64,000 nucleotides of DNA from Schmidtea polychroa (lineage: Eukaryota), in contig CM097885.1 in the NCBI GenBank assembly GCA_044892525.1, positions 15,564,001 through 15,628,000 of the forward strand, given 5' to 3'. Under the pieces are notes generated by a model. That model saw only the letters and a program-made list of their open reading frames with translations, ran no database searches and was not told where the DNA came from. This document shows, in pieces, positions 5,184 to 31,929 of this stretch (positions are counted from its first letter, which is position 1; every line of letters starts with the position of its first letter). The translations under genes and the position numbers were made by a program.

Positions 5184-5501
5184 ATGGATTGTTGTTTGGA
5201 AGTAGGTTTTGATGTAATTTTTTATTGAATTGATTTTTGATGTATTTTAATTAGAAATTCGAGATTTGAATGGATTGTTTTGTGGTTTAAAAAAGGTAAA
5301 ATTCTGGAAGGGAGGAAACCAGTTTTGTTTATTGAAATAAGTTTTGGAATCGAAATGTTTGAAGAAGAAGATGTTTATTACAAATTTATTAAAGCTTATG
5401 ATGTTCCAAACCAAGATCTTATTTCTTATTTCGATGAAACCCGTGAATTCATTGAAAATGGCAGAAAATTTGGTGGAGTATTGGTTCACTGTCTTGCTGG
5501 A
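5184..5501 (+). pseudogene. DUSP12: DUSP12/YVH1-like dual-specificity phosphatase copy A, 5' part (interrupted by the Polinton)
   Basis: Near-identical to ~21470-21788. Reads ...DVPNQDLISYFDETREFIENG...GVLVHCLAG and is then broken by the element. Confidence 0.85.
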
Positions 5502-6116
5502 AGTAGTGTGGTTATATACCCAACCAAAACAGCCCTCCCAACAAAACATGCCTCCAAATCACTTAAGCTATTAGAAAAACAACCTAAAACTTATACTTTT
5601 ATAGTATTTTAACCCTATATTTTGAAAACAACCACCTTTAATGACTCTAACTGTTTTAATCTTTAAAGCCTCAAACTCAAAAGCTTCAAACTAAAACCAT
5701 AAAGAGAATAGAAAAGAAAATGGTATTATGAAAAAGTTAGAAGGCTACTTGAGGATGCCAACTAGCAAGTTGCTAATTGGCTAATTAAAAAAAATAAATG
5801 AAATCTTAATCTTGATGTCTTGAAGAATAAAAAATTTTATGAAAATAGTAAAACTGCTCTGAGAGGACAGTGGTATTTTTTTTTTCACTGTCCTCTCAAC
5901 AGTTTTTTTGATCCGGATCATTTTTTTTTTATTCAACCTCTTTCGTTTATCAAATCTCTTCCAATATACAAGCTGGCCAGGCTCATAATCAGAATCAATT
6001 CGATAATAGCAGCACACCTTATTATTCGCTTCTCGCTCGAATACGATTTCATCGGCGTTTTAAGTGTGCTGCTCGAAAGTACAAATGAATTCGAAAGCGA
6101 ATCCGAAAGAGGTCCG

Positions 6117-6208
6117 AAAACAACCGAGAAATAAATGTGCACATTATGGGATCGATCCGGGTGTGTTCGAAAGACTGGTGGCGATAATTACCGGTTCGCC
6201 ACCACACC
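6117..6208 (-). ncRNA. Candidate Pol III RNA-2 (left TIR copy)
   Basis: Mirror of 19727-19818: A-box-like TGGCGAACCGG, B-box GGATCGATCCC and strong stems. Confidence 0.4.
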
Positions 6209-6371
6209 CGTTTCAATATTTTTTTTTTCATATTTATGTTTAAAAAATAATTAATTAATAAAAAAATAAAATAAAATAAAATATACAAGTACTTTATAAA
6301 TATAAGATACCCACACTATTTTCAATATTATTTTCAAATTTTTAATATTATTTTATGTTGAAAAAAAACTA

Positions 6372-6443
6372 ACCTCAGATGTGATTTGAACCACTATCCA
6401 TTTGAACCACTGTGCCAGTCTATTCCCACTGCGCCATCAAGGT
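6372..6443 (-). ncRNA. Candidate Pol III tRNA-like RNA-1, variant b
   Basis: Minus strand ACCTTGA-TGGCGCAGTGG-...-GGTTCAAATC-ACAT-CTGAGGT, then TAG and T8 (6361-6368). The central part differs from the other two copies. Confidence 0.5.
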
Positions 6444-6604
6444 TTGAATTTTTGTCATTTTTTAAATTTTTAATTTATAAAAAAATAAAATAAAATAAAA
6501 TAAATAAAATAAAATATACAAGTACTTTATAAATATAAGATACCCACACTATTTTCAATATTATTTTCAAATTTTTAATATTATTTTATGTTGAAAAAAA
6601 ACTA

Positions 6605-6675
6605 ACCTCAGATGTGATTTGAACCGCTAGCATTTTGAACCACTGTGTCAGTCTAGCCCACTGCGCCATCAAGGT
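6605..6675 (-). ncRNA. Candidate Pol III tRNA-like RNA-1, variant a
   Basis: A-box TGGCGCAGTGG, B-box GGTTCAAATC, T8 run at 6594-6601. Near-identical to 19478-19548. Confidence 0.55.
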
Positions 6676-6916
6676 TTGGATTTTTGTCATTTTTTAAAAT
6701 AATCGATTCAAGTTCTTTTATTCTTTCCTGTAATTGTTTTATTTTATCTAATCTTTTCTCAGCTACTTCTACTGCATTCATGTAAAAATGTCGATACTTT
6801 TCATTCTCTACCACCAACTCTTTAATGTATTCTAATGGTTCTTCTTCTCTTCTTTTCATTCTCTTAAGTTTAACTTCATTCAATTCATTTCTCATTCTTT
6901 CAATAAAGTCAATCAT
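6653..6916 (-). CDS. Small charged coiled-coil protein of the Polinton (87 aa), function unknown
   Basis: E/K-rich heptad-like ORF with AAAAATG start context, divergent from MCP. Confidence 0.55.
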   Translation of the reverse strand: MIDFIERMRNELNEVKLKRMKRREEEPLEYIKELVVENEKYRHFYMNAVEVAEKRLDKIKQLQERIKELESIILKNDKNPNLDGAVG

Positions 6917-7001
6917 TTTTATAAATTATTTTTTTATTGAATTCCCTTTTATTTTTATTTTTTTTTTCAACTTTTATTTTTATCAACTTTTATATATAAA
7001 A

Positions 7002-8294
7002 ATGAATAATATAAATCTTAAAATTCAAGAAAAAAATAAATTAAATCTTGATTATAATAAAGAATTTACTCATGAAATCAAGAAAAATGATGTACTTAAA
7101 ATCTCTCCAACTTCAGGATCTATTGCAAACTTAAATCGTAGGGGTGATATAGTTTTTCAATCTCTTCAAACATCAAACCCAATAGATATTTGTAATGCCA
7201 AATTATATTACAAAGTAGAATTAGAAATTGAAGCAAACAAAGATATAACCCTAGAAAATAATTTCTTTCCAAATTTATTCTCCAACATGAGATTAAAACT
7301 AGGATCATCAGAAATTGAAACTGTTTTACATCCAGGAGTATATTCTACAATGTTAAATTTTATTTTGACTGGTTGTGATTATAAAAATGAATATGGTGAA
7401 TTAACAGGTTGGATTCCTGACACTAATAAAGGGGATTTAGATAAAGATGGTTTAGATGTAAACCATGGTTACCATAAAAGAGCTGAACTTTATAAATCTA
7501 AAAAATTTGAAGGTTATTTTGAATTAAAACACTTGTTTGGATTCCTTCAAAACTATAATCGTATACTTCATAATGTTTTTATAGAATTCATCTGTAATAG
7601 AGTAGAAGGTGATAAAAGATTGTTCTATGGAGCTGTAGATACAAAAGCTAAATTAAAATTATCAACACTTGAATTACATATACCTGAATGGACATTAAAC
7701 CCACATTCTGAAATCAAACTCCTTGAAAGATTAAATTCCAACAAGTCTATAAATGTAAATTATTTAAATAGAATCTGTAGTGAATTTAGTATGACAGAGG
7801 GTTCAACATATTCTATAAAGGTAGCAAATTTTGCATACCGACCAAGATATATCTTGATTGGATTCAAAGAAACAGATTCATCTTTCCAAAAAAATAACAA
7901 TCTATTTATTCAAAAGATTGGAGATGATAATTTAAAAACAATCCAAATTCAATTAAATAGTTCTTATTATCCAATAAATAGAATGGAATTTAATATTGAA
8001 AATAATGAAAACATATTCCCATATCTAAATTATATTGAAACATGTTATGATTTCAAAGTTGAACCGCAATTAAGTTTAGAAGATTTCAAAAATTTATATT
8101 CTATATTTTGTATAAATGTATCAGACCAAGATGATCGATTAGCCATAAATAATGTTGATGTTACACTTCATGTAACAAAGGATTCTAATTTTAAAGCTAA
8201 AGTATATACATTAATATTAGAAGAAAAGAAAATAGAAATGAAATTATATGGTGGAAAGATTTCAATTATTGAAAATGTTAGGGGAGATTCTTAA
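7002..8294 (+). CDS. Polinton major capsid protein (double jelly-roll, hexon-like), ~430 aa
   Basis: Likely start MNNINL at 7002 (the upstream part of the ORF is low-complexity). Motifs RPRYILIGF, IQLNSSYYP and YSIFCINVS are typical of Polinton MCPs; size fits. Confidence 0.85.
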   Translation: MNNINLKIQEKNKLNLDYNKEFTHEIKKNDVLKISPTSGSIANLNRRGDIVFQSLQTSNPIDICNAKLYYKVELEIEANKDITLENNFFPNLFSNMRLKLGSSEIETVLHPGVYSTMLNFILTGCDYKNEYGELTGWIPDTNKGDLDKDGLDVNHGYHKRAELYKSKKFEGYFELKHLFGFLQNYNRILHNVFIEFICNRVEGDKRLFYGAVDTKAKLKLSTLELHIPEWTLNPHSEIKLLERLNSNKSINVNYLNRICSEFSMTEGSTYSIKVANFAYRPRYILIGFKETDSSFQKNNNLFIQKIGDDNLKTIQIQLNSSYYPINRMEFNIENNENIFPYLNYIETCYDFKVEPQLSLEDFKNLYSIFCINVSDQDDRLAINNVDVTLHVTKDSNFKAKVYTLILEEKKIEMKLYGGKISIIENVRGDS

Positions 8295-8311
8295 TATTTT
8301 AACATTTTAAA

Positions 8312-9727
8312 ATGTCTTTAAATAAACCCTATTGGAGATGTGAAACTTGTAATTGTCAAGTTACAAGACATCATAAAGCAAGTCGTCTTAAAACTAAAAA
8401 ACATACAGTAGGTGACCTAATTCCACGAGCTGGAGGCGATTTGCAATCTTCAAAAACAACATCTTCAATATTAAAACCTTTTACTACAGAAAAATATCCA
8501 GGTGAAAGACATTTATTTAAACACAACTATACTGGACCAGGAACACGTCTAGATATTAGATTAGATGAAAATAATAATCCCAAACAAGGAGAAGAACCAA
8601 TAAATAGAATTGATCAAACAGCTTTAAAACATGACATTGCATACAATTCAACAAATCTTAGAGATAGACATGTTGCAGATGTGAATTTAATACATGATTT
8701 AAATAGTATCCAAAATCCATCAACCCAAGAAAAGATTCAAAGAGCTCTAGTTAAATTAGCAATGAAAGGTAAGATTTTCATAGGCTTAGGACACAGTCCG
8801 ATCACCATGGGTGCAAGACTTCCTAGGAAAGCAAAAGATGTTGCTAATAAAAAGATTATTGAACAAGCAGATGCTGAAAGATCCCTCGAGAATATATCCA
8901 AGACTAGTTTATTAACCCCAACAGAATCACAAATAAAATATGCCAACGAATTACACCATGAATTTAGAAAAAATAAAAAATATTTAAAAGTTCAAGTACA
9001 TGAAAAAGATCAAACATGGTCTGCAGATTTAGTCTTTATGCCAACCAAATCATCAGACCCTGAAAAATATAAAATAATTTTAACTGTAATAGATTTATAT
9101 ACAAGATTTGCTTTTGCAAGATGTTTAGAAAATAAAACAGGATATTCTATTACAGAAGCATTTGAAAATATATTTGAAGAAAATCAAAGAATCCCAAAAT
9201 ATTTATGGTGTGATAAAGGAACAGAATTTTATAACAAAGTTTTTACAAAGTTTTTAAATGAAAATGATATTAAATTATATTCAACAGAAAACGAAGGAAA
9301 AGCAGTCGTAGTTGAAAGATTAAATAGAACATTAAAAAATAAAATGTGGAAATATTTTACTGCTATTGGAAAACAAAAATGGAACAATGAATTGTTACAA
9401 AAGATTGTAAATGAATATAATAATGATGTACATAGTTCTATAAAATTAACACCTTTAAATGCTTCCATGAAGCCTGAAACCATTAAAGTGGTAAATATTG
9501 AAAATGATGTTATTGAAAAACTAAAGTTTAAAATTGGTGACCGAGTAAGAATATTTAAATATAAAAATAAATTTGAAAAAGGATTCACAGCAAAATGGAC
9601 AAATGAAATTTTTATTATAAATAAAATACATTATACAACTCCAATAACATATAGCATCTTTGATTTAAATAATGAAAAAATATTAGGTAGATTTTATAAT
9701 AATGAACTACAGAAAACAGATTTTTAA
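8312..9727 (+). CDS. int: Zn-finger + parvovirus-type PLA2 domain fused to a retroviral-like (rve) DDE integrase
   Basis: PLA2 motifs HNYTGPG and DQTALKHDIAY. Integrase WSADL..., LWCDKGTEF...VVERLNRTLK, with 33 residues between the second D and E. One uninterrupted ORF. Confidence 0.92.
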   Translation: MSLNKPYWRCETCNCQVTRHHKASRLKTKKHTVGDLIPRAGGDLQSSKTTSSILKPFTTEKYPGERHLFKHNYTGPGTRLDIRLDENNNPKQGEEPINRIDQTALKHDIAYNSTNLRDRHVADVNLIHDLNSIQNPSTQEKIQRALVKLAMKGKIFIGLGHSPITMGARLPRKAKDVANKKIIEQADAERSLENISKTSLLTPTESQIKYANELHHEFRKNKKYLKVQVHEKDQTWSADLVFMPTKSSDPEKYKIILTVIDLYTRFAFARCLENKTGYSITEAFENIFEENQRIPKYLWCDKGTEFYNKVFTKFLNENDIKLYSTENEGKAVVVERLNRTLKNKMWKYFTAIGKQKWNNELLQKIVNEYNNDVHSSIKLTPLNASMKPETIKVVNIENDVIEKLKFKIGDRVRIFKYKNKFEKGFTAKWTNEIFIINKIHYTTPITYSIFDLNNEKILGRFYNNELQKTDF

Positions 9728-9738
9728 GTCGACAAGCC

Positions 9739-10530
9739 CTAAAACAAACTTTTCCATATTTCAGCTTCTTCTCTATCCAAATAAATATAATTATATTTTT
9801 CTTTCCAATGATTATCAACAAACATATCAAACATATTCTTATCAGGTTCAACATTTGAAAATAAATCATTATAAATCATATTCTTATCACGGCGATCTAA
9901 TTTAAAAAATATAAAACAATTGGAATTATTTCTTATTGAATTTTTATCTAAAGCATAATATGTTTGAGATATATAAATAACATTACAATTATTATGTCGA
10001 CCTCGTGTAAAGTAACTCTTTTGAATCTCTTGATTTTTCATATTAACAACATCATCAAATATAACTAGATTCTTTTTATCTTTAGGAAGTAAATCACAAT
10101 GTAAAACATCTTCAGGTTTATTAGAGAATAAAACTTGAATTGCCTCCTGCCCTTCTTCACAAATATAATCATTTTTATTACTAATATCTGATTCTAAAAT
10201 CTTTTCCTTATACCAATCAACCATATCACAAGGTTGATAAACTTCTTCAGGACACCTATGTTGATTTTTAAAAATATCAATTATTGCTTTTTTAGTTAAT
10301 TTATTTTCAAATCCACATTTCAAAAGTTGTAATTCTGGTTGATTTATGGTTGTAGAATAAAAGATTAAATTATTATAATCTAAAAAATCATCTTCAAGTA
10401 ACATTCTCAAAACAAGTACATTCTTTCCACATCCAGAAGAACCAACAATTAATAATCTAAAATTATCAGGAAATACTTTATTATTAAATTTACTCTTATG
10501 TCTATTTAAAATTGGTTTCCAAATATCCAT
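9739..10530 (-). CDS. Polinton DNA-packaging ATPase (A32-like, FtsK-HerA superfamily)
   Basis: Walker A GSSGCGKN, Walker B LVIFDD, TRGRH motif, ISQTYY. Likely start MDIWKP at 10530. Confidence 0.92.
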   Translation of the reverse strand: MDIWKPILNRHKSKFNNKVFPDNFRLLIVGSSGCGKNVLVLRMLLEDDFLDYNNLIFYSTTINQPELQLLKCGFENKLTKKAIIDIFKNQHRCPEEVYQPCDMVDWYKEKILESDISNKNDYICEEGQEAIQVLFSNKPEDVLHCDLLPKDKKNLVIFDDVVNMKNQEIQKSYFTRGRHNNCNVIYISQTYYALDKNSIRNNSNCFIFFKLDRRDKNMIYNDLFSNVEPDKNMFDMFVDNHWKEKYNYIYLDREEAEIWKSLF

Positions 10531-10545
10531 TTTATTTATTATAAA

Positions 10546-11115
10546 ATGACCTCGAAGAGTTCCTCTACTGAAGAATCTTTGCAAGAATTAATAAATTCAA
10601 ATAAAAATAAATCAGTAGTAATTGATGGTAAAAAATATTTTATTGGAAAACATGTAAAAGAACAAGTTAGAGCGAAGCTCCACGAAGCTAAAGAAGGTGG
10701 CATTCTTCCATTAGCTGCTTTAATACCTGCAATCATTGCTGGTTTATCAGGTGCTGCTGGAATAGCTGGAGGAATTGCAACTACAGTTCAAAAAGCTAAA
10801 GAATCTCAAAAGACAGACCTAGAAAAAGAAAAACTACAAACTGAAATCGATTCAATGAAGAAGGTAAGGCAAGCTAAAGGGGGAGTGTCCGTTGGAAAGG
10901 GTCTCTATCTTAATCCATATGAGGGGAGTCGGCAAAAGTCTCAGGGCAAAGGTCTCTATCTAAATGATTTTTTAAAAAATCAAATTTCTACATCTGAATC
11001 TTTATCTTCAAAAGATAAAGAAGATTTAAAAAAGATATGTAAATCTTTAAAGAATGGATGCCTTTGTAAAACTAAAAATGGTAAAGGATTATACTTGAAG
11101 CCCTTCGAACTATGA
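10546..11115 (+). CDS. Putative virion core/membrane-active protein (adenovirus pX-like)
   Basis: EGG-ILPLAALIPAIIAG hydrophobic segment resembles the adenovirus pX C-terminus (GG-ILPLLIPLIAAAIG). Three GKGLYL repeats. Confidence 0.6.
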   Translation: MTSKSSSTEESLQELINSNKNKSVVIDGKKYFIGKHVKEQVRAKLHEAKEGGILPLAALIPAIIAGLSGAAGIAGGIATTVQKAKESQKTDLEKEKLQTEIDSMKKVRQAKGGVSVGKGLYLNPYEGSRQKSQGKGLYLNDFLKNQISTSESLSSKDKEDLKKICKSLKNGCLCKTKNGKGLYLKPFEL

Positions 11116-11137
11116 TACCATTTTTGATACCATTAAA

Positions 11138-12019
11138 ATGGTATATGAAGAAAGATTAGCACTTTTAAAAAAATTACAATCAGAACAAGATAAATATAAT
11201 AAAAAAGATACAACTCAACATGCTGAATCTATAATATTAAATGAGGTAATAACACAACAACAGGGGCCAACAATTAAAGCTATAAAAGAGTTGGAAGATT
11301 TCAATGAGCAAGCAAAATTTAAAGAGTTAGAAGATAAAAAACAAAAAATAAAAGAACTAGAGTGGCAGGATAAAGAAAAAGAATCCAGTGAAAACCATCC
11401 TGAAAGAAATCAAAGAAAACGCAGAAGAATTTCTAATGTGGAAGAAGAAGAAATGTTTTTAAAAACAAAACCTCTTAAAGTTGATCCTAAAATTAGAGAT
11501 GATTTACCTCCTTCAATTAGACCCACATTTAATACTAATACTGAAGGATATCAAATAATAACAATTAATAAACAAAACTTTACTTTATATTCAAATTCAG
11601 AAAATAAATCACGTATTCATTCACAAAATGTTTATAATAATGAATATTTAGACTTTGAATTTACAGATGATTTTTATAGATTACTTTGTGGATATTCTTC
11701 AGATGATGTTGAAGAAATTAAAAAATATTTAAATTTAATAAGATTAATAAGAGCTAGTTCTAAAGCAAAATATATTCAAGATTTAAAGAATTATTTAAAT
11801 AAAAATGAAAAGGGTTATGTTGTTACAGAGGGAGAGGGATTAATTAGTGAAGGTGGTAAACCAAATCCCATCAATCTTTTTATTGAATTAAGAAAACTAT
11901 TAGCTGCAAGGAAAGCAGGACATAATAATTTAGATTCTGATATTTTAAAGATTTCTAAAGATTTGTTAAAACAAGGAATAATTTCAAAAGATAAATTTAA
12001 TAAGTATACGAAGTTATAA
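11138..12019 (+). CDS. Conserved Polinton protein of unknown function (293 aa)
   Basis: Intact ORF in the structural cluster. C-terminal LRKLLAARKAGHNN...DLLKQGII resembles a helical motif recurrent in Polinton ORFs. Confidence 0.6.
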   Translation: MVYEERLALLKKLQSEQDKYNKKDTTQHAESIILNEVITQQQGPTIKAIKELEDFNEQAKFKELEDKKQKIKELEWQDKEKESSENHPERNQRKRRRISNVEEEEMFLKTKPLKVDPKIRDDLPPSIRPTFNTNTEGYQIITINKQNFTLYSNSENKSRIHSQNVYNNEYLDFEFTDDFYRLLCGYSSDDVEEIKKYLNLIRLIRASSKAKYIQDLKNYLNKNEKGYVVTEGEGLISEGGKPNPINLFIELRKLLAARKAGHNNLDSDILKISKDLLKQGIISKDKFNKYTKL

Positions 12020-12041
12020 ATACGAAGTTTTAAAATACAAA

Positions 12042-12506
12042 ATGACTCCTTCAATATTAGATTTTTTAAAAACATTTGGAATAAATGCAAAAACAAATTT
12101 TGATTTAAAAGATTATGCAAATTATTTAAATTTAAAAATTAAAATATTAATGAATGATGAATTATCAAGTCTGGAGAGTCCCCTGAATATAATAATCAAT
12201 TATCAAAATTCAAATGAAAAAGGATCTCATTGGGTTTGTATATATAAGAAATCTATCTACTTTGATTCTTTTGGGATTAAACCTACTAAAGAAGTTGAAG
12301 ATTATCTCTTGAGGGGTTCTCCGATTGATTCCCCAAATGGTTATACTTTTAACTCTTTACAAGTTCAACCTTTGAATACTAAAATATGTGGTATTTTAAG
12401 TTTATATGTTTTGTATAGATTGAATAAGGGAGAGGGAAAGGGGCATACGCAGGATTTTAAATCTATAATTCAAGAAATTTATAATGATCTAGAATCTCTA
12501 CTATAA
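12042..12506 (+). CDS. Adenain-like cysteine (maturation) protease
   Basis: GSHWV (His), YFDSFG (Asp), VQ...ICG (Gln/Cys) catalytic set. Confidence 0.92.
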   Translation: MTPSILDFLKTFGINAKTNFDLKDYANYLNLKIKILMNDELSSLESPLNIIINYQNSNEKGSHWVCIYKKSIYFDSFGIKPTKEVEDYLLRGSPIDSPNGYTFNSLQVQPLNTKICGILSLYVLYRLNKGEGKGHTQDFKSIIQEIYNDLESLL

Positions 12507-12554
12507 GGATTTTTACTATAAGGATTTTTACTATATGAATTTACTACTAAAGAA

Positions 12555-13319
12555 ATGGAGCTTCACAACCCTCCGGAAGATAATTTAAAAAAAATGGTAA
12601 ACATAATGTCAGATAAATATTCAAGAACTTTATCTATAAATTCAAAAGAATCAGACTTTACTATAAACTTTCAAGATTCAATTAAATTAGATCAAAATTT
12701 AAATTATGAATTGGGGCTATTATGGTTTTGTGCTTATAATACTATTTTTAATATAACTAAAGATAATAATAAATTTACTATTCAAACTCGTGATGGGCAT
12801 AAACCAGAAATTATAACAATAGAACCTGGGGCATATGAGATAAAAGATTTAAATGATATACTTTCTAAAAAATCAAATGAAGGTATTAAAATTAAAATGG
12901 ATATACCAACTTCAAAATGTGTAATGACTTTGAAGAATATAAAAATTAGTTTTTTAGATAATTGTTTCTTTCACACAGTTTTAGGATTTAAACCTATGGA
13001 TATAACAATAAAAGAAGATAAAATAATAACATCAGAACATATTATAAAAATAATAAATACAAACACAATAAATATTCATTGCGATTGTATAACAGGTTCT
13101 TATAATAATGGTAAACAAACAAATGTTTTATATTCCTTTCCCTCAAACACAGTTCCTATGGGATATAAAATAGTTGAAAGAATGAATCCTCCAAATTATT
13201 TACCTTTATGTAGAAAATATATAATGGATATTAATTTTAAAATTCTTAATCAAGAAGGAGAATTGATTGATTTTAATGGAGAAGAGATTTCAATGTATTT
13301 ACATTTGAAACAGGTTTGA
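12555..13319 (+). CDS. Polinton minor capsid protein (penton, single jelly-roll)
   Basis: INIHCDCITGSY, VLYSFP, GYKIVE..P.YLPL and NQEGELIDFNGE..S.YLHLK C-terminus are typical of Polinton pentons. Confidence 0.88.
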   Translation: MELHNPPEDNLKKMVNIMSDKYSRTLSINSKESDFTINFQDSIKLDQNLNYELGLLWFCAYNTIFNITKDNNKFTIQTRDGHKPEIITIEPGAYEIKDLNDILSKKSNEGIKIKMDIPTSKCVMTLKNIKISFLDNCFFHTVLGFKPMDITIKEDKIITSEHIIKIINTNTINIHCDCITGSYNNGKQTNVLYSFPSNTVPMGYKIVERMNPPNYLPLCRKYIMDINFKILNQEGELIDFNGEEISMYLHLKQV

Positions 13320-13343
13320 AGATTCATTTTAAATTATTAATAA

Positions 13344-14354
13344 ATGAGTTCTTATATTCCATGTAATAGAGGTGGTGGAACAATAAAAACAGGGTTTAAT
13401 ACAGAAGAAATATTAACTTTAACAGAAAATAAATATATTAATGAAAGAGGTGATTCAATGAAGGGTGATTTAATTTTAAATGGACACAAGATAAAAGAAT
13501 TATCTTTTCCAACTGATGAAGCTGATGCAGTTAATAAGAAATATGTAGATGGTGTTAAAAAATATACTGATTTAACAACAACAAGAATTGAAAGTTCATT
13601 AACAACAAAAATTGATTCAATGGAATCAAAGCTTAATAATATCGAACAACGATTTAATGATAAATTTGACAAGTTACAAAGTCTGTTAACTGAACAAGTT
13701 GTAAAGTTAAATACTGCTATATTAAATTCTAAAGATAAACAAATTATGAATACTAAATTTAATACAATATATAAAATAATAAATGAGATGATTACATCAT
13801 TTAATAAAAGAATTTCAAATTTAGAGTCTCATGGAACACACATTAACACCACACATAGTATTAGAAAAAGAGCTGCTGAATTAGAACAGAATAAAACATT
13901 ATTACCCCATACATATAAACATTTTATAGAACCAAGTTTAATAACAACAAACAGTAAAGAATGGGGTGTTTTTATGGTTGTAAAGATTATTGATCCTTAT
14001 TTCTTTTTGTTTGATGATGATAATGAAAGAATGAAATGGTTTGTGAAATGTGATTATAATAGTAAGCTTGAAAAGGGTGATGTTATAATGACTAGTTATG
14101 ATTTACCACACGGAGATTGGTATGTTAATACTCATTCACATGGACTACATAAAGTTAAAAGTAAGAATATTATTTTTAAAAGCACACTTGTACAATATAT
14201 AGATTTAATATTTTATGAAAAAAAGGTTGATGTTGATGAAGTTCGTAAAGCATTGAGAGAATTGTATAAAGATATCCTCTCAACAAGAGTTTCTTTTGAT
14301 ATCCGAGTATTGGTGCCAGATGGTGCTCAGAAGAATAAAGTCTTATTTTTTTAA
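13344..14354 (+). CDS. Putative fibre/spike protein
   Basis: GDSMKGDL and PTDEADAVNKKYVD resemble trimeric fibre/adhesin stalk motifs. Followed by a coiled coil and a beta-rich C-terminus; adjacent to the penton gene. Confidence 0.55.
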   Translation: MSSYIPCNRGGGTIKTGFNTEEILTLTENKYINERGDSMKGDLILNGHKIKELSFPTDEADAVNKKYVDGVKKYTDLTTTRIESSLTTKIDSMESKLNNIEQRFNDKFDKLQSLLTEQVVKLNTAILNSKDKQIMNTKFNTIYKIINEMITSFNKRISNLESHGTHINTTHSIRKRAAELEQNKTLLPHTYKHFIEPSLITTNSKEWGVFMVVKIIDPYFFLFDDDNERMKWFVKCDYNSKLEKGDVIMTSYDLPHGDWYVNTHSHGLHKVKSKNIIFKSTLVQYIDLIFYEKKVDVDEVRKALRELYKDILSTRVSFDIRVLVPDGAQKNKVLFF

Positions 14355-14362
14355 TTATTAAA

Positions 14363-14959
14363 ATGGAAGAAGTAAGAGAAGAAAAAATTTACCCAGAATT
14401 GAGATCATCAGGATATTATTCTTCCAAGGCCTCGGCTCCCACAGAACTTGAAATTATGAGAGTAAAAGAATTTAAATCAGAAACCTTACATTTACAAGAT
14501 TTATTAAAGCATTATAAAAAAATTAAAAATAGATGGAATAAAGGGAATACAGTTTTAAAAGTTATAGGTTATTCTTTAGGATTTGCATCTGCAATATTAA
14601 CAGTTATTTTACCCATAACTTTACCAGTTGTTACTCTTGCACCTGTAATACTTGGAAGTATTTCTGTGGCTGATGGTTTCTTAACTGAAATAGTTTCATT
14701 ATCTTATACTTCTAAAAAGAAAAGTTTATATAGAGAAGTTTGTTTATCAATAGAATTAGGAATCTCTAAATTATTTTTATTTCAATTAAAAGCTTTGGAA
14801 GATGGAATCCTGACAGACGAAGAAATAATGAAATCAAATCAAATAATACAAGATATAAAGAATGAGGTTATAAGATTAAAAAGGGAGGGCATGGTGGCTA
14901 ATGTTATAAGTAATAAAAAAACATCTCGAGAAAAATGGTTAAAGAATTCTTATTTATAA
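14363..14959 (+). CDS. Polinton membrane protein with a hydrophobic hairpin (198 aa)
   Basis: Long hydrophobic segment VIGYSLGFASAILTVILPITLPVVTLAPVILG between coiled-coil regions; KALEDGILTDEE. Confidence 0.6.
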   Translation: MEEVREEKIYPELRSSGYYSSKASAPTELEIMRVKEFKSETLHLQDLLKHYKKIKNRWNKGNTVLKVIGYSLGFASAILTVILPITLPVVTLAPVILGSISVADGFLTEIVSLSYTSKKKSLYREVCLSIELGISKLFLFQLKALEDGILTDEEIMKSNQIIQDIKNEVIRLKREGMVANVISNKKTSREKWLKNSYL

Positions 14960-15053
14960 AATGGGTTTATTTTTAAAAAAGTAGATCAGGTTGCTATAGT
15001 TGCTTAAATTAATTGTCGACATTTTATTATTAAAAAATTAAATATCGTTGGTT

Positions 15054-18000
15054 TCAGTTATGGTTGAAAGCCAACCTTTGAATCATTAATTTATGATCTT
15101 TAAATTCTTTATCACTTAGACCTTTTATATATTCAGGATCAGTATTAAAATATTTAAGTTCTAAACATATAGGATTAAAAACTTGAGAATATAAAGGCTT
15201 CTCGATTTCTCTCTTGGGATAAATAATTTCAACATTATAAATATCAAGATCAGTAATCTTTGTATCATATAACTTATTCAACTTTTCTAGATTTTTTATT
15301 ATAGGGATTAAATTATTTCCAATAGGTAGAGTTGTCTTTAAATCACTTAGTATGAATCTCTTATCATCATAATTTGATAATGATACTTTTTGAGATTCTA
15401 TCAAGTGAATATCATGGTTTTCACTTTTAAGTTGATGTATTTCATCAATTTTATCTTTATGATTTGGATTCAATGCATCTATATAATCTTGATGAGAAAG
15501 ATTCTTTGCAACCACTCTCGGTATTCCTTTACATCTGTTATCCTTTACAGGTTTTTCTTCTTGTCCCTCTGGTCCTTTAGGAAATATAGGATATCTATGT
15601 GTAATGGTTTCTTCTGTTTCTGGAGTTTTAAATATAAATGATCTAGTTATAAATTCAGGGTTTCTAAATGTTTCGTATGAATATTGTTTAGCACGAATAA
15701 ATATTCCATTTTCTATAGGAGTAAAAGGTTTTTCATCTTTAAACGAAAATAGTTCTCCAGTTGAATTTATTAAATTTGAAAGTATAGGATTTTCAGCTAT
15801 ATCTCTTTGTAAATCATGAGTTCTTATTGTTAAAAACATTGAATCTGTATCCATTGCATGCATTGATATATTAGAACCATATATAGGTTGTAAGATGTTA
15901 TAATATGTTTCATACATTTGTAATTTTGAAAGTTCTAAAATTGAAAACCCTATAAATATTGGTTTGTTGTATGTTTTCTCAAAACTCTTTAGTTCTATTG
16001 CAGTAAGACTTTCAGAAAATACTTGTGCGTTTTTAAATGTAGGCTTTCCTAGCATACGATTATAACGCTTAATATCTTTGGCAGTATTAGTTAGGAGTTC
16101 AATATGAGTATATTTATCAACATTCTCCATTGTCTTCCCAAAGACTGAATTGTTTAAAAGTTTATAATTATTATCTTTAAAAAGGTTACCTTCTCTTTTT
16201 GCAATGTTTCGACACCTAATGTTCTCCTCGATAAAAGCTTTCATGAATGGAGCTTGTTTAAATCTTATGACACTATGAACTTTTTTTAATATCATTCCTC
16301 GTGAGAGATAAAATTGGAGGAGTCTATAGTGACAAAGATAAAACCTTCGATCTGTTTGATCACAAAGAAGTTTCATTGTTGGAGGTTTATCTTGTGAGAT
16401 TTGCCATTCAGAAAGTTCGTTGATATCAATCTTTCTTCTTATGGGAGCTAAAGGAAAATATCTTGTTCCTGATTTTATATCATCTGGATAGTCGAGGTCA
16501 CATTCTATAAAGTAACCTATTGGAAAATCTTTCGACGTTGAAAGTATTTCTTTCATAAGGTCATCTGTTGGGTTCTCTATTCCAGTGAAATCACTCATTG
16601 GTAAATATTGAGTCATAATTCCTGAATATAAAGCTGTTGCATCTATATAAAGTATAAATATAGGATTTTTCATTGTTTCTAATAATTCTTTTAATTCCTC
16701 ATTGTTAATTTTCATATATGGATCATCAGGGTGTTTAGAGAGTCTTCGGCTAGTAGTTATTGCATTTCTAGCTTTTATTTCTCTATTCCCCATTACTGAA
16801 GAGACTCCTCCTCTAATGTTTGTTTTAATTTGGTTAAACATATCGAGGTTAGTTAAAAGATCTATAATTTTATCAGCATCTTCTATATTTGAAGTCCAAA
16901 TGGTATATAACATAGTATCCCAAGCTAAAGAGGGTGCAGTTATATAATTATAAGGTTTAAGAACAAAAGAGTTTGTAAATTCTTCAAAGCAATCTGCTAG
17001 AATATAAACATCTAAGGATAAATACATGTTGGTATATTCTCCTAAAGTTTTACACTTGAATAATTCCCACATTTTTAATGCTCGAGAATATTCTTGATCT
17101 GTAATCCCTGATTGTAGTAAGTTTGAAAAGAAATCTTCTTTGTTAGGAAGACTTGTTTCATTATATCTTTCAAACGAGTCAACATAGTCATAAGGATATA
17201 TTTCCTTTTGCTAAACATGTAGGATATTCTTCTAGAGGAATATTATTTTTTTCCAAGAATTCTCGAGTGATTTTAAAATTTTCTGGTTTCATTGTTTTTG
17301 CTACTGCATCTAAAGACATTTGGAGAAAGTTTAACGAGTCTATAAATTTTAATTTTCCATATTCAATTGATTTATATTTTTCCTTTGTTAAGCCGATAAC
17401 TTTGAAAGAGTTTTTAGCATTTGCTGCGAGGTGTTTAATAAATAGATGTATGTCATATCCAAAAAGATTATGAAATATAACAGGTATAAATTTAGGAGTA
17501 TGACAATTAAGATTGCAATTTTTATGAGCTGCTCCTCGATAATTATTTTCCTTTTTTAAATGATCATGATCTATAACTTTTTCATCAGGAAGAATATTCT
17601 GTTTACACATCCAACAGTTGGAAGTATTTTCATATTCTTGTTGTTGTTGATTAGAAATATTTTTGAGGATACTTTGTTTTTAATATTTTAAATATTTCAT
17701 GTTCTAGATCATTTATATTTTTAGTAAAATGATTCAAGACTTCTGTTTCTGAAATTCCTCGAAATGTATATTCTCTAGATTCTATGAGTTCAGGATAATT
17801 ACTTTTAAATAATAATTTATAAGCAGATGGTAATTGTTTAGTTTTTTTAACACTATTAGGTTTATTTCTTTTTCTTAGAAAGGCTTTCATCCTCTCTGGT
17901 TTCATCTTCTCTCCTGAGGAGTTCCAGGAATCCATGAGTTTATTTTTTTCTATTATTTTTAAATATTGATAAACCAAATCTTGTTTATGGTTTATAGATT

Positions 18001-19410
18001 CAAAGTCACCATAAAGAACTCCAACTGTTTGTAGTAAATTTGAAAAGTTTTTAAAATATATCTTGGGATTATTAGGCATTTTAATTAAAGCTGGATCATC
18101 TTTTTCACAAAGTCTTGTATGTTTAATCATAGAGTTTTAGTTGTTGAATAATGAAGACATCTTTTACATGTTCCTCCTCCACTAGTTGGATTCTCTGGTG
18201 ATGTAAAAGCTTGAAAGTTTTTTATTAAAACATAATATTGATTATTTTGTTGTTCCAAGATTAAAAGATATATCTCCCTAGTGTTATCCTGCGGTTCGTT
18301 ATCTCTAACTTCATAATCTGAAATATAAATTGGAATAATTTCTCTGCTATTAACATGTTTCCCTTTAACACGTTCATAAATATTAATTTTAAGATTATTT
18401 AAACTTTCAAATTTTGGAATGTCTTCTAGTTTCATTGGATGTTTGAATCCTTTGGGAAATATTAATTCATTTTCATATTGTTTGTATTTTGAAACTCTTT
18501 GGGGATTTGTTGCTTGAGGATGTAAATGTGCAAATATTGACCAGATGAAACATTTGTTATCATTATTCTGTACATTTATAACATTTTTAGATTTAAAGGG
18601 TGTAGGAATATAAGATTTAGGATTGGGTGGTAATCCTCTCCAATAATCAATCACTAAAGTTTGGAAAGAGTTGAATACTAAGTTTGAATCTCCTAATTCA
18701 TTTTCTACTTCCTCTTGTTTTGCTTCTGCTGCTTTAATTATTTCTTTGATGGTTTTATCAAATCCTTTAATTGAAAATAAATATTTAAAAGGTATTCCAA
18801 TTTCAACATCTAAGGGTGTTGTCTTTTCTTCTGCTCCTCGCCAGTATTTTGCTTTGATTATAATTTTATATTTTATAACATTATACCTTGTCGGTTTATA
18901 ATTTTTTAAAGCTTCAGTGAAAGAATTTTTAATATTTTTTTTATTTTTATTTATATATTCTCCAGGAGTTGCAGGCCCATTAATTTTTAATTGAAATTCA
19001 TCTATATGATTAAAATTATCCCAGTTATATTTTTCTCTTTCAACATGATCAGGTTCTCCTTCTGAATGACATTCCTCATCGTCAGAATTTTGTTTTTTAT
19101 TTTTACATTCTTTTATATGTTCTAAATAATAGAAATTTAGTTTTGTTGAAAAGTTACAATGAGGACATGTAAATATTTCTCTATTTTTCCCGATACAATT
19201 TTCAAAATGTTTATTATATCCAGAAAATAGAAATCTTCCTTTACATTTAAGACAAAGTTTTGAATTTGTATCATTAAGATTATTTTCTTTTAATAAATGA
19301 GCTTTCGATTTTAAGTGAGAAATTAATCCAGTTTTATTTTTAAAAACTTTATTGCAAATATTACAATTCATTTTTAGAAAAAAAATTTTTATTGGATACC
19401 CTGTTTTCAT
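15054..19410 (-). pseudogene. polB: Protein-primed family B DNA polymerase (pPolB), broken by three frameshifts
   Basis: N-terminal C2H2 fingers, INVQNNDNKCF, exo YGDFES, CWMC..DHDH..YRGAAH..CN, KGIYPY (frameshifted), YIDATALY, KLLNNSVFGK, MDTDS, YDDKR. Frameshifts at ~18130, ~17662 and ~17203. Confidence 0.93.
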
Positions 19411-19477
19411 TTTATTTTTTAAGATTTATATTATTCATTTTTTATAATAAAAATTTAAAAAATGACAAAAAATCCAA

Positions 19478-19548
19478 ACCTTGATGGCGCAGTGGGCTAG
19501 ACTGACACAGTGGTTCAAAATGCTAGCGGTTCAAATCACATTTGAGGT
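19478..19548 (+). ncRNA. Candidate Pol III tRNA-like RNA-1 (right TIR copy)
   Basis: A-box 19485-19495, B-box 19528-19537, 7-bp terminal stem ACCTTGA/TTGAGGT, T9 at 19552-19560. Confidence 0.55.
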
Positions 19549-19726
19549 TAGTTTTTTTTTCAACATAAAATAATATTAAAAATTTGAAAATAATATTGAA
19601 AATAGTGTGGGTATCTTATATTTATAAAGTACTTGTATATTTTATTTTATTTACTTTATTTTATTTTATTTTTTTATTAATTAATTATTTTTTAAACATA
19701 AATATGAAAAAAAAAATATTGAAACG

Positions 19727-19818
19727 GGTGTGGTGGCGAACCGGTAATTATCGCCACCAGTCTTTCGAACACACCCGGATCGATCCCATAATGTGCACAT
19801 TTATTTCTCGGTTGTTTT
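19727..19818 (+). ncRNA. Candidate Pol III RNA-2 (right TIR copy); may extend further
   Basis: A-box-like TGGCGAACCGG (19734-19744), B-box GGATCGATCCC (19777-19787), stems CGGGTG/CACCCG and TGGTGGCGA/TCGCCACCA, first T4 at 19815-19818. Confidence 0.4.
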
Positions 19819-20433
19819 CGGACCTCTTTCGGATTCGCTTTCGAATTCATTTGTACTTTCGAGCAGCACACTTAAAACGCCGATGAAATCGTATTCGAGC
19901 GAGAAGCGAATAATAAGGTGTGCTGCTATTATCGAATTGATTCTGATTATGAGCCTGGCCAGCTTGTATATTGGAAGAGATTTGATAAACGAAAGAGGTT
20001 GAATAAAAAAAAAATGATCCAGATCAAAAAAACTGTTGAGAGGACAGTGAAAAAAAAAAAATACCACTGTCCTCTCAGAGCAGTTTTACTATTTTCATAA
20101 AATTTTTTATTCTTCAAGACATCAAGATTAAGATTTCATTTATTTTTTTTAATTAGCCAATTAGCAACTTGCTAGTTGGCATCCTCAAGTAGCCTTCTAA
20201 CTTTTTCATAATACCATTTTCTTTTCTATTCTCTTTATGGTTTTAGTTTGAAGCTTTTGAGTTTGAGGCTTTAAAGATTAAAACAGTTAGAGTCATTAAG
20301 GGTGGTTGTTTTCAAAATTTAGGGTTAAAATACTATAAAAGTATAAGTTTTAGGTTGTTTTTCTAAGCTTAAGTGATTTGGAGGCATGTTTTGTTGGGAG
20401 GGCTGTTTTGGTTGGGTATATAACCACACTACT

Positions 20434-20533
20434 GCTGGAAGATCAAGAAGTGGAATTATTTTGACGGCTTATTTAATGAAACATTTTAAATTTGGTCCAA
20501 ACGATGCGATTGAGACAATTAAGGAAAAGTCAT
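20434..20533 (+). pseudogene. DUSP12: DUSP12-like copy A, continuation after the Polinton, truncated at ~20533
   Basis: (AG)RSRSGIILTAYLMKHF... matches 21783-21882, then diverges abruptly after AAGGAAAAGTCAT. Confidence 0.88.
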
Positions 20534-21469: not shown

Positions 21470-22200
21470 AATGGATTGTTGTTTGGAAGTAGGTTTTGAT
21501 GTAATTTTTTATTGAATTGATTTTTGATGTATTTTAATTAGAAATTCGAGATTTGAATGGATTGTTTTGTGGTTTAAAAAAGTTAAAATTCTGGAAGGGA
21601 GGAAACCAGTTTTGTTTATTGAAATAAGTTTTGGAATCGAAATGTTTGAAGAAGAAGATGTTGATTACAAATTTATTAAAGCTTATGATGTTCCAAACCA
21701 AGATCTTATTTCTTATTTCGATGAAACCCGTGAATTCATTGAAAATGGCAGAAAATTTGGTGGAGTATTGGTTCACTGTCTTGCTGGAAGATCAAGAAGT
21801 GGAATTATTTTGACGGCTTATTTAATGAAACATTTTAAAGTTGGTCCAAACGATGCGATTGAGACAATTAAGGAAAAGTCATTTATATGTCCAAATGATG
21901 GATTCATGAAACAATTAAAGATATATTTCAACATGAATATCAGTGATGAAATCAACAAATGCGCAAATACAGTTTCTCAAGCTCAATTTAAGTTATCAGC
22001 ATCTTCAAAAGATTTAGTTCAATTCAAATGTAGAAAGTGTCGATTTTTATTATTCGACAATTCAAGTGTTGTTGAGCACAGTAAAATGAAAGCTTCGAAA
22101 GCAATAAATGAAAGCACAATTTGCAATGAGGAAATACTTATCGAAGCTCTTCCTTGGAATGATAGCAGCAATGCAGACGGGGAAATGAAAATGACAGTGT
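21470..22200 (+). CDS. DUSP12: DUSP12/YVH1-like phosphatase copy B (catalytic site intact; 5' frame and 3' end doubtful, possibly a pseudogene)
   Basis: VHCLAGRSRS active site, ICPNDGFMKQL, and the start of the C-terminal Zn domain FKCRKCR. The last part of the Zn domain is not seen before the (TTA)n tract. Confidence 0.7.
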
Positions 22201-22240
22201 TAAAGAATAAAATATTAATGATTTATTTGGATCTTATTCA

Positions 22241-22412
<172 letters not shown>

Positions 22413-22679
22413 TAACAGTCTCATATTATATTTTAAACAATTTAAATATTATTTGGAATATTTTATAAGATACAATAATATGAGTTATTTCATTTTATTC
22501 ATATTTGTTTGTGTGCTAAATTTCATCTTTTTACAAAAACATTTTCTCAATAATAAACTATTGTTTAGATTATATTTTCATGTAGTAATATGAAAGCGAA
22601 ACAATTTTTTATTTCTCTTTCATCTGTAACAATAAAGTTAATTTCGACCAAATTATATTAATTATTAATTAAAATTATT

Positions 22680-26786: not shown

Positions 26787-26962
26787 GTAATAGGTAATTT
26801 ATATTTTATATGTTATAAGTTATGTTTCTGTAGTAATAGATTTAAATCGATCTTTAATTTGTGGAATTTGGTTTTGATGGTTTGTTAATGGAAGAGCAGG
26901 AATCGTTTGTTTGAACTGGTAAATTGTGTAGAAATTTTGGATTTTTGTTTTTTAGTTGAAAC

Positions 26963-27655
26963 ATGGAAGAAAATGAAGGCCTGAAATGTCGTCTTCCAAT
27001 GAGCAATATAGCGAAGATTATTTTCTCACCTGAAGGGAGATCATTCCAAGTCGAATATGCATTTAAGGCAATTGCATTAGATGGATTGCTTTCCGTTGGT
27101 ATTCGAGGCAATAATGGTGGTGTAGTAGCTACACAAAGAAAAGTTCCAGATAAAATGATTGAGAAGAGTTCAGCTACAAGATTGTTTAATATTACTGAAA
27201 GTACTGAATGGGTTATGACTGGTATGATCCCTGATTGTCGATCTCAAACATGTCGTGCACAAATGGAAGCAGATCGATTTAAATATAAAAATGGATATGA
27301 AATGCCTTGTGACATAACATGTCGTTGTATCGCGGATATTAATCAGCTCTACACCCAATCGGCTGAGATGCGACCATTAGGTTTATCAATGATAGCATTA
27401 TCTTATGATATTGAAATGGATAAACCGTTATTATTCAAAACTGACTCCAGTGGCTTTGTAACTGGACATCGAGCTGTTGCAGTTGGTGGGAAGCAATTGG
27501 AGGCTAAAAGTTATTTGGAAAAGAAACTACGTAAAAATAGAGCGTGTGAAACTATCAAATACATAAAAATCTTTTTGACGTGTTTTAGACGAAAACAAAT
27601 GATAATAATAACAAATAATAATATTAATAATAATGATAATAATAACAAAAAATAA
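26963..27655 (+). pseudogene. PSMA6: Proteasome subunit alpha-1/alpha type-6-like, intronless, with altered N-terminus and truncated C-terminus
   Basis: IFSPEGR.FQVEYAFKAI, TQRKVPDK, VMTGM..D.RSQ, KYKNGYEMP, YTQSAEMRPLG, LEKK; then runs into low-complexity sequence. Confidence 0.8.
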
Positions 27656-29095
27656 ATAATAATAATAAGAATAATAATAATAATATAAAACGAAGATTCC
27701 TTGCCAGTAGCATCGATTAAAAATAAAATAATTAATAAATAAAGTTCTAAGATTTCAGTGCAAATTTCATATTTAATAAAAAAATAAATGAGAATTTTCG
27801 ACTATGAAATAATCTTATTTAATTGATTGAAAAATAAATAATAAAATTCCACTACTGGTCAATGTAGGCAAGGTGATTGCTCGCCATATATTCTCAGGAA
27901 ATGGCCATAGTTTGCCTTTTGATGGACATGAAGGACATTTTGTATCCGGCTATTGCTGGAGGTAATATTTTATATGGATGACACGTGTCAGCTGCCTGAG
28001 AGCCACAGGAATATCCTAGAAGGCCACTATTAGCATAGAAAGGAACTTATTTACTCCTTCACTCACCAATGAGAATGAATAATAATTTAACATTATGCCA
28101 TTTTCGCATCTAATGCTTTACTGATCCATCTCAGCCATGTAGAGGCGCCATTGAAAGCTTGGTCAGACCGCGTGCCAATACTCATGCTCATTGCGGAAAA
28201 TCCAGTCAAATCGCCTTCATTGCCCTCATAAACATTACACAAATGCACTCAGTCTGGGACACATTTCTCGCTATCCGTTCTGAGTAAGCATCCGTTTGTA
28301 CAGCTCCTTTCATGCATGCCATCTGATATGTCAGTGTGGGATCTTGTCTGTGTACAAGTTTCCACACCTTTAAATTGAGGATCTAGAAAGGATAAAATCA
28401 AATTCCTAATAAGTCACGTCACAATGTATCAATGCGTTCGATGAAATAACAAAAAACAATGAAAGATGACCACGACTACTGTTGAATGACATCAGAATGG
28501 TCCTGACAATTGCTCAATGGTGTCCATTAATTGGATTAATATTAAAAAATATAAAACAAATGTTTGATTTTTTGCTGAATCTGCTGTGACCGATTTCTGT
28601 GCCATATTTATGTACATCTATCAAAACATACACTCTCCAGGACATTCACTAGCACAGTGAACTACAATTTGATAGAATCAATTTAATTAAGTGTCAATTA
28701 GGCATTGCATTGATCACAGATTTCATAAAATTATACAAATATTCGTTACAATTTAATTTTTTATTGTGTTAAATCTAATCCAATTTATCAATATTGCTTT
28801 GTGCATTTGATGTTTTATCATTGCAACTATGTCACAATAAAATGTTATAAAATTATAATTTAAATAATTTTGTAATATTTAAAATAAATGAGAAAAAAAT
28901 TAACATTAATAATATTTTGATTTGCGCTAAAAGTTAAAAAACAATATTTATAAAATGTTTGTTTATCTACATCAAAATACAAATTATAAATATTGAAATT
29001 GTCAACGTCAGAGGAAATAATTAATATAATAAGTATGATTTATGATTGTTGTAAAATGTTGAAATATTTTGATAATATTGTTAATTTTAGATAAA

Positions 29096-30955: not shown

Positions 30956-31929
30956 AAATTGATTTATTTTGGCTTTTGATTTGTTTTATTGTTTGCATTT
31001 TTTATTATATTTATTATATGAGATAATTATTGTGGTAATTATTGTCATTCTCGCCTTCCATCCGATATCATCATCACTTGGCGGAGCGCTCACAGCAAAT
31101 TGCCAATTGCAATATCAACATCAATTATATAATTAAATAAAAGCAATTTAATTAAATCAAAACATTTAATATAAATTTGAATAATTATTATAATTAAATT
31201 AATAATTAATTTGAAAGAAATGAAATTAAAATTCACCCGAATATAAGCGCTGACAAATCGCCTCAACAAATCAAACGCTCCTATGACGAGTGGAACTGAC
31301 GAAAAAACCGCCGCTGATGTTATATGAGTTTTGGATAAATTATTGCTGTACTGAATGGCAGTAAAATGCACCTAAATGCAATACTAACACCGCGTTATAT
31401 CAAATTGAATTCTTTGAATTTTACTTATTAACAAACAACGAAATTTATCTTGAAATCTTGAAATTATAAAAAAGGGGATCATTTAGGAAATTTATAAATG
31501 AGGTTTTAAAGTGAAGTTGAGTCCAATACCTAATCTACATCAATACCTTGTGGTGATAAGTGACGGTTATGGAGTTTAAGGCGGGGGGGGGGTTATTTAT
31601 AAAATTTATAAATTATAATCTTAAATTAAACGTAAGTTGAGCATACATAATAAAGTAATTTACATTAGCGAATTTGGTACTTGATTGATGGTCATATTAC
31701 TTGAGGGGCATAAATGAAATTATAATTTTAAAATTCAAAATTTTAATTAGACATTTCTAAGAAAACAATTTACATTAATACATTTAGGATGAGATTAGTA
31801 GCAGTGGCACTTTAAGAGGTCAAAAATAAAATTTGTAAATTAATATTTTAATTCTCAAATACAAGATGAATAAATATATAGATAATCTATATTAGGGAAA
31901 TTCTTAATAAGTAGATGACTCTTAGCAAT

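Follow-up and report, generated by a model that had tools for sequence, protein, structure and literature searches.

Parvovirus-type phospholipase A2 (PLA2) is already known from Polintons: the available text of the original accounts describes PLA2X in Alpha (Mayetiola-class) adintoviruses (Starrett et al. 2021, PMC8502044) and 'CAP' in Sf Mavericks (PMC5803895), in elements that also have PolB, ATPase, protease and capsid genes, and a role in entry has been proposed there. The adintovirus PLA2 has a protein X-like domain at its C-terminus, and the integrase is separate and bears a chromodomain (PMC8502044). In mavirus, according to the available portions of Born et al. 2018 (PMC6048507), a related cysteine protease cuts GG↓X and GX↓G sites (arrow, position of the cut), and virions contain integrase and cleaved lipase; the two proteins come from separate genes, the lipase belongs to the alpha/beta hydrolases and is not a PLA2, and these portions make no mention of a frameshift. 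Published accounts, PMC8502044 among them, give PLA2 and integrase as separate genes in the text available. Slippery-site -1 frameshifts have been proposed for adintovirus Penton and Hexon-Adenain only (Buck et al. 2024, 10.1101/2024.03.25.586562): these concern the same virus group but different genes, and PLA2-integrase goes unmentioned in the available text.

A link between the two genes bears on how Polintons/Mavericks deliver integrase to new cells and on whether particles spread them at all. Two better-known systems offer a comparison. In parvoviruses, the PLA2 of VP1u (PF08398) is tethered to the capsid protein. In retroviruses and LTR retrotransposons, integrase is the C-terminal part of a Gag-Pol precursor that also contains a virion protein and from which the protease releases it; some lineages make this precursor in frame, others by -1 frameshifting. 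Here we analyze an element in which PLA2 is joined to the integrase itself.

The PLA2-integrase frame and its host element

The fusion ORF lies in a 14,932-bp Polinton/Maverick (5502-20433; Table 1) within the window, the 64,000-nucleotide stretch of DNA analyzed here, which belongs to an AT-rich genome of 781 Mb. The element displays the features of Polintoviricetes: terminal inverted repeats (TIRs), target-site duplication, PolB, rve integrase, double jelly-roll (DJR) capsid protein, ATPase and cysteine protease. It has a single PLA2. Unlike in the PLA2X and 'CAP' elements, the PLA2 here shares its frame with integrase, a gene of its own encodes the protein X-like product, which has no PLA2 domain, and there is no chromodomain. 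Measured against the definition of Alpha adintoviruses (Starrett 2021), the element has a pfam03175-type PolB but neither PLA2X nor an integrase chromodomain. PolB is broken into four ORFs in the window copy (19410-18127, 18130-17651, 17610-17188 and 17072-15054). The protease is 42% identical to the protease domain of a related locus (L126), and the homologous protease of another (L092) matches Peptidase_C5 weakly, below cut-off. Six GG or GxG motifs occur in the protein X-like ORF, and a search of the ESM Atlas with the ORF at 14363-14959 returned unnamed look-alikes only.

Table 1. Features of the element and of its fusion ORF, in window coordinates
Feature	Position	Strand	Basis or remark
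Left 6-bp target-site duplication, GCTGGA	5496..5501	+	
Left TIR of about 1.0 kb, with AGTAGT as the first bases of the element	5502..6514	+	
DJR major capsid protein	7002..8294	+	PF21738, E 1.4e-26
PLA2-integrase fusion ORF, 471 aa	8312..9727	+	ORF translation, Pfam, AlphaFold model
C2H2-type zinc-finger leader, one ligand missing here	8339..8404	+	Accessory, variable among homologs
GG↓D motif (41-43) before PLA2, candidate protease site	8432..8440	+	Low-confidence loop in model
Parvovirus-type PLA2 domain, Ca loop and HD catalytic motif	8438..8782	+	Pfam, alignment, Foldseek
G-L-G junction motif (158-160), candidate GX↓G protease site	8783..8791	+	Homolog alignment
Variable linker	8792..8938	+	3-73 aa in homologs, median 15
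Retroviral-type integrase, D239/D301/E335 core and SH3-like C-terminal domain	8939..9724	+	Pfam, alignment, model
A32/FtsK-type packaging ATPase	9739..10530	-	PF04665, E 3.5e-8
Protein X-like core protein without PLA2 domain	10546..11115	+	Weak Adeno_PX match, E 0.038
Putative core protein, two glycine motifs near C-terminus	11138..12019	+	Homologs in related loci
Adenovirus/Ulp1-type cysteine protease	12042..12506	+	His, Asp, Cys motifs present
Probable penton (minor capsid protein), identity inferred	12555..13319	+	Conserved in related loci; no Pfam match
Coiled-coil protein, possibly fibre or cement (inferred)	13344..14354	+	
Uncharacterised protein with hydrophobic segments	14363..14959	+	
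Protein-primed DNA polymerase B (PolB)	15054..19410	-	PF03175
Right terminal inverted repeat; element ends ACTACT	19405..20433	-	
Right 6-bp target-site duplication, GCTGGA	20434..20439	+	

The insertion falls precisely within the HCxAG catalytic motif of one copy of a dual-specificity phosphatase gene (5355-5501 and 20434 onward), and an uninterrupted duplicate of this gene lies just downstream (21642-22415). Elsewhere in the window, a multi-kb block is duplicated about 30 kb apart (26943-32774 and 56683-62957) with 90-97% identity; it includes ORFs that are presumably proteasome-like and TRAF-like. A 19-nt tandem array occupies 39282-40113.

A preliminary description of this DNA had reported one ORF with a complete parvovirus-type PLA2 and a DDE integrase but without a chromodomain, and Pfam and the catalytic motifs bear this out. 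The ORF has no internal stop. PF08398 (parvovirus-type PLA2) matches residues 67-148 (E 1.2e-8) and PF00665 (rve) residues 230-323 (E 6.9e-12), both above cut-off; no chromodomain is matched by Pfam in the 471-aa ORF, which ends after the SH3-like domain. The PLA2 signature, a GPG Ca loop with HDxxY...D catalytic residues, is present as YTGPG (73-77), DxxAxxHDxxY (101-111) and ADxxL (122-126), followed by GLG (158-160) and the integrase residues D239, D301 and E335. Across an alignment of 88 fused proteins, consisting of the window ORF and 87 chosen from the 120 best database matches, D101, D108, Y111, D123, K154, G158, D239, D301 and E335 are invariant, and H107 is kept in all but one (87/88).

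The AlphaFold model of the whole protein (pLDDT 86, pTM 0.57) consists of separate confident domains, with low-confidence segments flanking PLA2 at residues 34-42 and 161-171. In place of a chromodomain, the C-terminal domain is modelled as a five-strand, SH3-like fold. The integrase part has no N-terminal helical/HHCC domain (NTD) and matches the integrases of foamy virus and MELD virus, foamy-virus integrase being its best solved fold. Modelled in isolation (pLDDT 87.5), the PLA2 domain adopts a helical PLA2 fold whose Foldseek matches are viral PLA2/VP1 models; the best solved match, rice PLA2, is middling (Z 6.9, rmsd 4.1, 89 aligned residues). The Ca loop, HD motif and helical fold are common to parvovirus VP1u, but the window PLA2 is tethered to integrase rather than to a capsid protein, and is flanked by glycine motifs.

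The zinc finger of the preliminary description exists as a leader, but it is of C2H2 type and lacks one of its four zinc ligands in the window copy. Pfam does not detect it, all four ligands are present in 27 of 30 fetched genome copies, and a C2H2-like leader occurs in only 10 of the 88 homologs. Its wrong ligand order, its place before PLA2 and this narrow distribution rule it out as the integrase HHCC domain. Two near-identical copies no more than 0.32 Mb from the window (L002 and L003, G000:C1) have the same zinc-finger defect, which suggests local duplication. A possible internal start, Met166, has a strong Kozak context and is kept in 30 copies of the window's family; because it belongs to a 9-aa insertion that 1 of the 88 aligned proteins has, it cannot be a general separate start of the integrase, although it may serve as one within the window's own family.

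Distribution of the fusion

The full-length protein was matched in all 90 scored genome copies, at 96-100% identity and without a stop in 85, in a set that holds the best-scoring copies and is thus biased toward intact ones. A PLA2-only query from another lineage, which is less biased, placed 110 of 150 matches in frames of at least 400 aa and 16 in frames shorter than 250 aa. Among database proteins, both Pfam domains were found in 107 of the 120 best matches of 993 (116 of the 120 by our own profiles); these 120 reach down to 37% identity, and one is a coral protein. A tree built from 116 integrase rows places the window within a clade (support 100) made up of 39 in-frame fusions. Thus genome copies, PLA2-only matches and database homologs together exclude a one-off mutation; many Polintons have the fusion as a trait of their lineage, and it is not peculiar to the window element. 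Because 9 of the 120 best matches contain PLA2, integrase and chromodomain together, loss of the chromodomain appears to be independent of the fusion.

As for earlier descriptions of Polintons, in the literature searched we found neither a PLA2-integrase fusion nor a frameshift between the two, although figures, bioRxiv supplements, Repbase and subscription papers may show the fusion. This covers the available text of PMC3671162, PMC4642659, PMC5803895, PMC11161782, PMC11131425, 10.1101/341131, PMC8097293, PMC4028283, PMC10748475, 10.64898/2026.10.13.758929, PMC6048507, PMC11296320, PMC8502044, 10.1101/2024.03.25.586562 and 10.64898/2026.06.19.733378. Automatic domain annotation of database proteins already displays the fusion. 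The likely gag-pol-like logic across Polintons is probably the part new to specialists.

Several variants were seen along the way. A divergent variant in the same genome (L152, G000:C4) has a PLA2 that runs almost straight into the first catalytic integrase strand. Fusions of about 650 aa (L075:514-2499, P0097 and P0112) contain an additional long helical stretch that separates PLA2 from integrase and is bounded on both sides by glycine motifs. A single-protein scan of viral contigs found nothing; nine viral contigs of 3.3-3.5 kb (L161-L169) carry a related PLA2 without integrase. Polinton integrase loci also appear in many prokaryotic MAG records (L180-L258), which are probably mis-binned eukaryotic or viral contigs.

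The glycine junction and a candidate packaged precursor

The preliminary description had placed a GLG motif at the domain boundary, where G158 proves invariant. The junction (158-160) reads GX↓G in 74 of the 88 homologs and GG↓X in 5, a total of 79, and the second glycine is absent in the other 9. Before PLA2, GG↓X is found in 43 of 88. Besides the Ca loop, GG↓D (41-43) and GLG (158-160) are the sole GG/GxG motifs of the fusion protein. Within the integrases of the 88 homologs such motifs number 8 against 53.9 expected, a weak test, because the homologs share ancestry and W and P pairs are likewise scarce. The junction motif fits the mavirus-type sites GG↓X and GX↓G, at a domain boundary beside low-confidence loops. 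In contrast, it does not match the adenovirus protease consensus (M/I/L)XGX↓G, whose P4 rule is given in the available text of 10.1101/341131, because P4 is F in the window protein and K in 50 of 88 homologs. The motif also marks where the PLA2 module stops, and many PLA2s encoded alone terminate only a few residues away from it. In several lineages it is tandemly duplicated, up to four times (window 8783-8818, P0004, P0059, P0079 and P0095).

The same motif recurs with a different partner. Four loci have protease and integrase fused in frame (L042:2740-4248, L078:274-1803, L092:128-1471 and L126:1787-3145), a Pro-Pol-like arrangement that occurs in two separate integrase clades, and all four have GxG or GG at the join.

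We consider it fairly likely, with a probability of about 0.6, that the fusion protein is a packaged integrase precursor cut by the element's own protease. The starting point is the single leader-PLA2-linker-integrase protein found family-wide. By analogy with parvovirus VP1u and mavirus MV13, its PLA2 part would be a virion entry factor that directs the precursor into the capsid core. The maturation protease would then cut at GG↓D (41-43) and GL↓G (158-160), releasing PLA2 as a free domain of about 115 aa, together with an integrase that would resemble, at its N-terminus, the NTD-less integrases that stand alone in elements where PLA2X is separate. On arrival, PLA2 would breach the endosome, and the pre-packaged integrase could act without new gene expression. 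As the junction is in frame in the window lineage, PLA2 and integrase would be made 1:1. The suggestion of a packaged polyprotein split by the protease survives in part: the conserved GX↓G/GG↓X sites, the same motif at the protease-integrase joins and the mavirus data favor it, and the unmatched adenovirus consensus does not. The further suggestion that entry is coupled to 'immediate' integration goes beyond the evidence and is unsupported.

No particles are known for the window element's family. A conserved, putatively cleavable precursor would allow a direct test of the virion model, with one protease, one substrate and one predicted cut. If the model is true, such elements would reach a new cell ready to integrate.

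It is unlikely that the fusion instead works uncut, with PLA2 replacing the missing integrase NTD or directing the integrase to a membrane (e.g., the nuclear envelope) and the glycine motif acting as a helix cap. That PLA2 is a required substitute for the NTD, as the NTD-less integrase part might suggest, is weakened by NTD-less integrases that have their own Met beside a separate PLA2X (L034-L039) and by one locus (L095) that joins PLA2 to an integrase retaining its NTD. An uncut protein would agree with the linkers of 8 aa or fewer in 22 of the 88 homologs, with the position of the motif at the end of stand-alone PLA2s and with the unmatched adenovirus consensus, but the protease can be the partner instead, again with a glycine motif, and the model itself has a low-confidence linker and a pTM of 0.57.

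Equally doubtful is the proposal that the fusion is an expression device only, by which the integrase borrows the promoter and start of a late neighbour, with its level set by frame, and is freed or used in the producer cell without being packaged. Both partners, PLA2 and protease, are predicted virion proteins, and no fusion to PolB or ATPase was found among the integrase ORFs screened in 206 loci, which speaks against it. In its favor, the partner gene varies between PLA2 and protease, and 10 of the 12 relatives with a -1 junction described below offer the integrase no start of its own. The stand-alone mavirus integrase is packaged unfused in the account available (PMC6048507), so that fusion is not needed for packaging.

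Split relatives with a -1 junction

We surveyed 206 loci, after dropping 11 duplicates, and obtained an integrase start for 181. PLA2 adjoins integrase in 42 rows, of which 22 have the integrase in the -1 frame, 7 in the +1 frame, 4 in frame with a stop, and 9 fused; 12 further rows have a PLA2 scored as a separate gene, among them L075, which is really a long fusion. Where both ORFs are intact and not fused (15 loci), the shift is -1 in 13, +1 in 2, and in no case an in-frame stop; intact fused loci number 5, window included. The +1 junctions thus comprise 2 intact loci and 5 broken ones. The excess of -1 has a binomial P of 0.013 without L186, and of 0.022 when L032, an ambiguous case with no heptamer and a break further along, is also left out.

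The overlaps of these loci contain slippery sites. In 9 of the 12 distinct -1 loci, against 0.72 expected, the usable overlap contains a canonical heptamer, most often A AAA AAC. Of the Lys-Lys/Lys-Asn dicodons, 9 of 21 are slippery in the overlap vs 10 of 103 elsewhere (P 0.0007); the excess therefore survives this control, indicating a codon choice beyond what lysine content explains. All usable sites lie within an A-run or next to one, and two loci (L033 and L073) have an A-run without a canonical heptamer. No Met precedes the integrase core in 10 of the 12; L033 and L068 have one.

Strong hairpins (z -3.0 to -4.3) lie downstream in L071, L095, L183 and L184, and that of L096 is also strong. 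In four loci the hairpins start 5-8 nt past the heptamer, the spacing expected for ribosomal frameshifting. Strong downstream structure is absent in 8 of the 12 -1 loci, and no downstream RNA structure common to all split loci was found. A 12-bp hairpin is fully paired in three diverged loci (L071, L183 and L184) with two double-sided changes, a covariation among three sequences that does not beat shuffles (98/500).

Protein databases show the short form as well. Among 120 listed of 3808 matches to the PLA2s of these loci, 108 end before integrase and 12 read into it, in a search that covered proteins of up to 454 aa and so overstates the short form. Most short PLA2s among the matches listed stop within 25 residues after a lysine run, and the same holds in both of the largest protein clusters, of 2359 and 918 members, where 14 of the 15 members listed for each stop just after it, counts biased by the same size limit. 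Of nine tail pairs, 5 fit a -1 offset, 2 a +1 offset and 2 neither.

On the integrase tree, the -1 label needs 8 changes, and a single clade of the 13 -1 rows is rejected (p-AU 0.023, with L095 and L032 left out). These several changes indicate that switches between in-frame and shifted junctions have recurred. The window copy has no frameshift junction: its linker holds no slippery heptamer in frame, a hidden -1 site that would yield free PLA2 was not found there, and in-frame loci mostly have no A-run.

In our judgment it is quite probable that the split junctions are programmed rather than products of decay. Sister lineages would then depend on a -1 ribosomal frameshift, a few codons past the glycine motif, to make any precursor, yielding much free PLA2 and little PLA2-integrase, like Gag and Gag-Pol. 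It is very unlikely that only the in-frame fusion is functional and that the split -1 loci are dead copies or A-run assembly errors. These loci do come from metagenome or MAG contigs, in which A-runs are error-prone, and A-runs are hot spots of mutation too; yet about 6200 aa of both ORFs are unbroken in 12 loci, whose sole break falls within a 159-codon zone. Variants with +1 and in-frame junctions exist within the same clades, but -1 exceeds +1 by 13 to 2 and the slippery codon choice is above lysine-content expectation. Strong stimulatory structures are missing from most -1 loci; on the other side stand the 12-bp hairpin kept in three diverged loci, the short PLA2 as the common form in the largest clusters, and the complete absence of the A-run from most in-frame loci. 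Bridging of the junctions by polymerase stuttering on the A-run, splicing or reinitiation is similarly improbable: the confinement of usable sites to A-runs, the two A-runs without a heptamer and the Met in L033 and L068 would suit it, but the splice-acceptor pattern of pyrimidine tract plus AG is absent from all 12 -1 junctions, four hairpins have the spacing of frameshift stimulators, and 10 of the 12 have no Met.

A programmed -1 frameshift before the integrase of a DNA virus would, if real, mark an evident convergence with retroviruses. Integrases now annotated as broken or N-terminally truncated may then belong to intact elements, and counts of active Polintons may therefore be too low. 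At even odds, we propose that animal Polintons have independently reached the retroviral Gag/Gag-Pol solution: an integrase attached to a virion protein, either rationed by frameshifting or made 1:1, with repeated switches between the two, packaged, and freed by protease. The differences are plain: the present element is dsDNA, has a double jelly-roll capsid and lacks reverse transcriptase, the carrier is a phospholipase or a cysteine protease where retroviruses use Gag, and all the steps proposed for it are read from sequences.

Two split relatives have arrangements of their own. In L095 (1395-3007), PLA2 leads through a -1 junction with a 9-bp hairpin into an integrase of the NTD-bearing clade, which suggests an independent origin or an integrase swap. 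In L096, a block of ATPase, PLA2, integrase and protease is tandemly repeated within a 6-kb contig.
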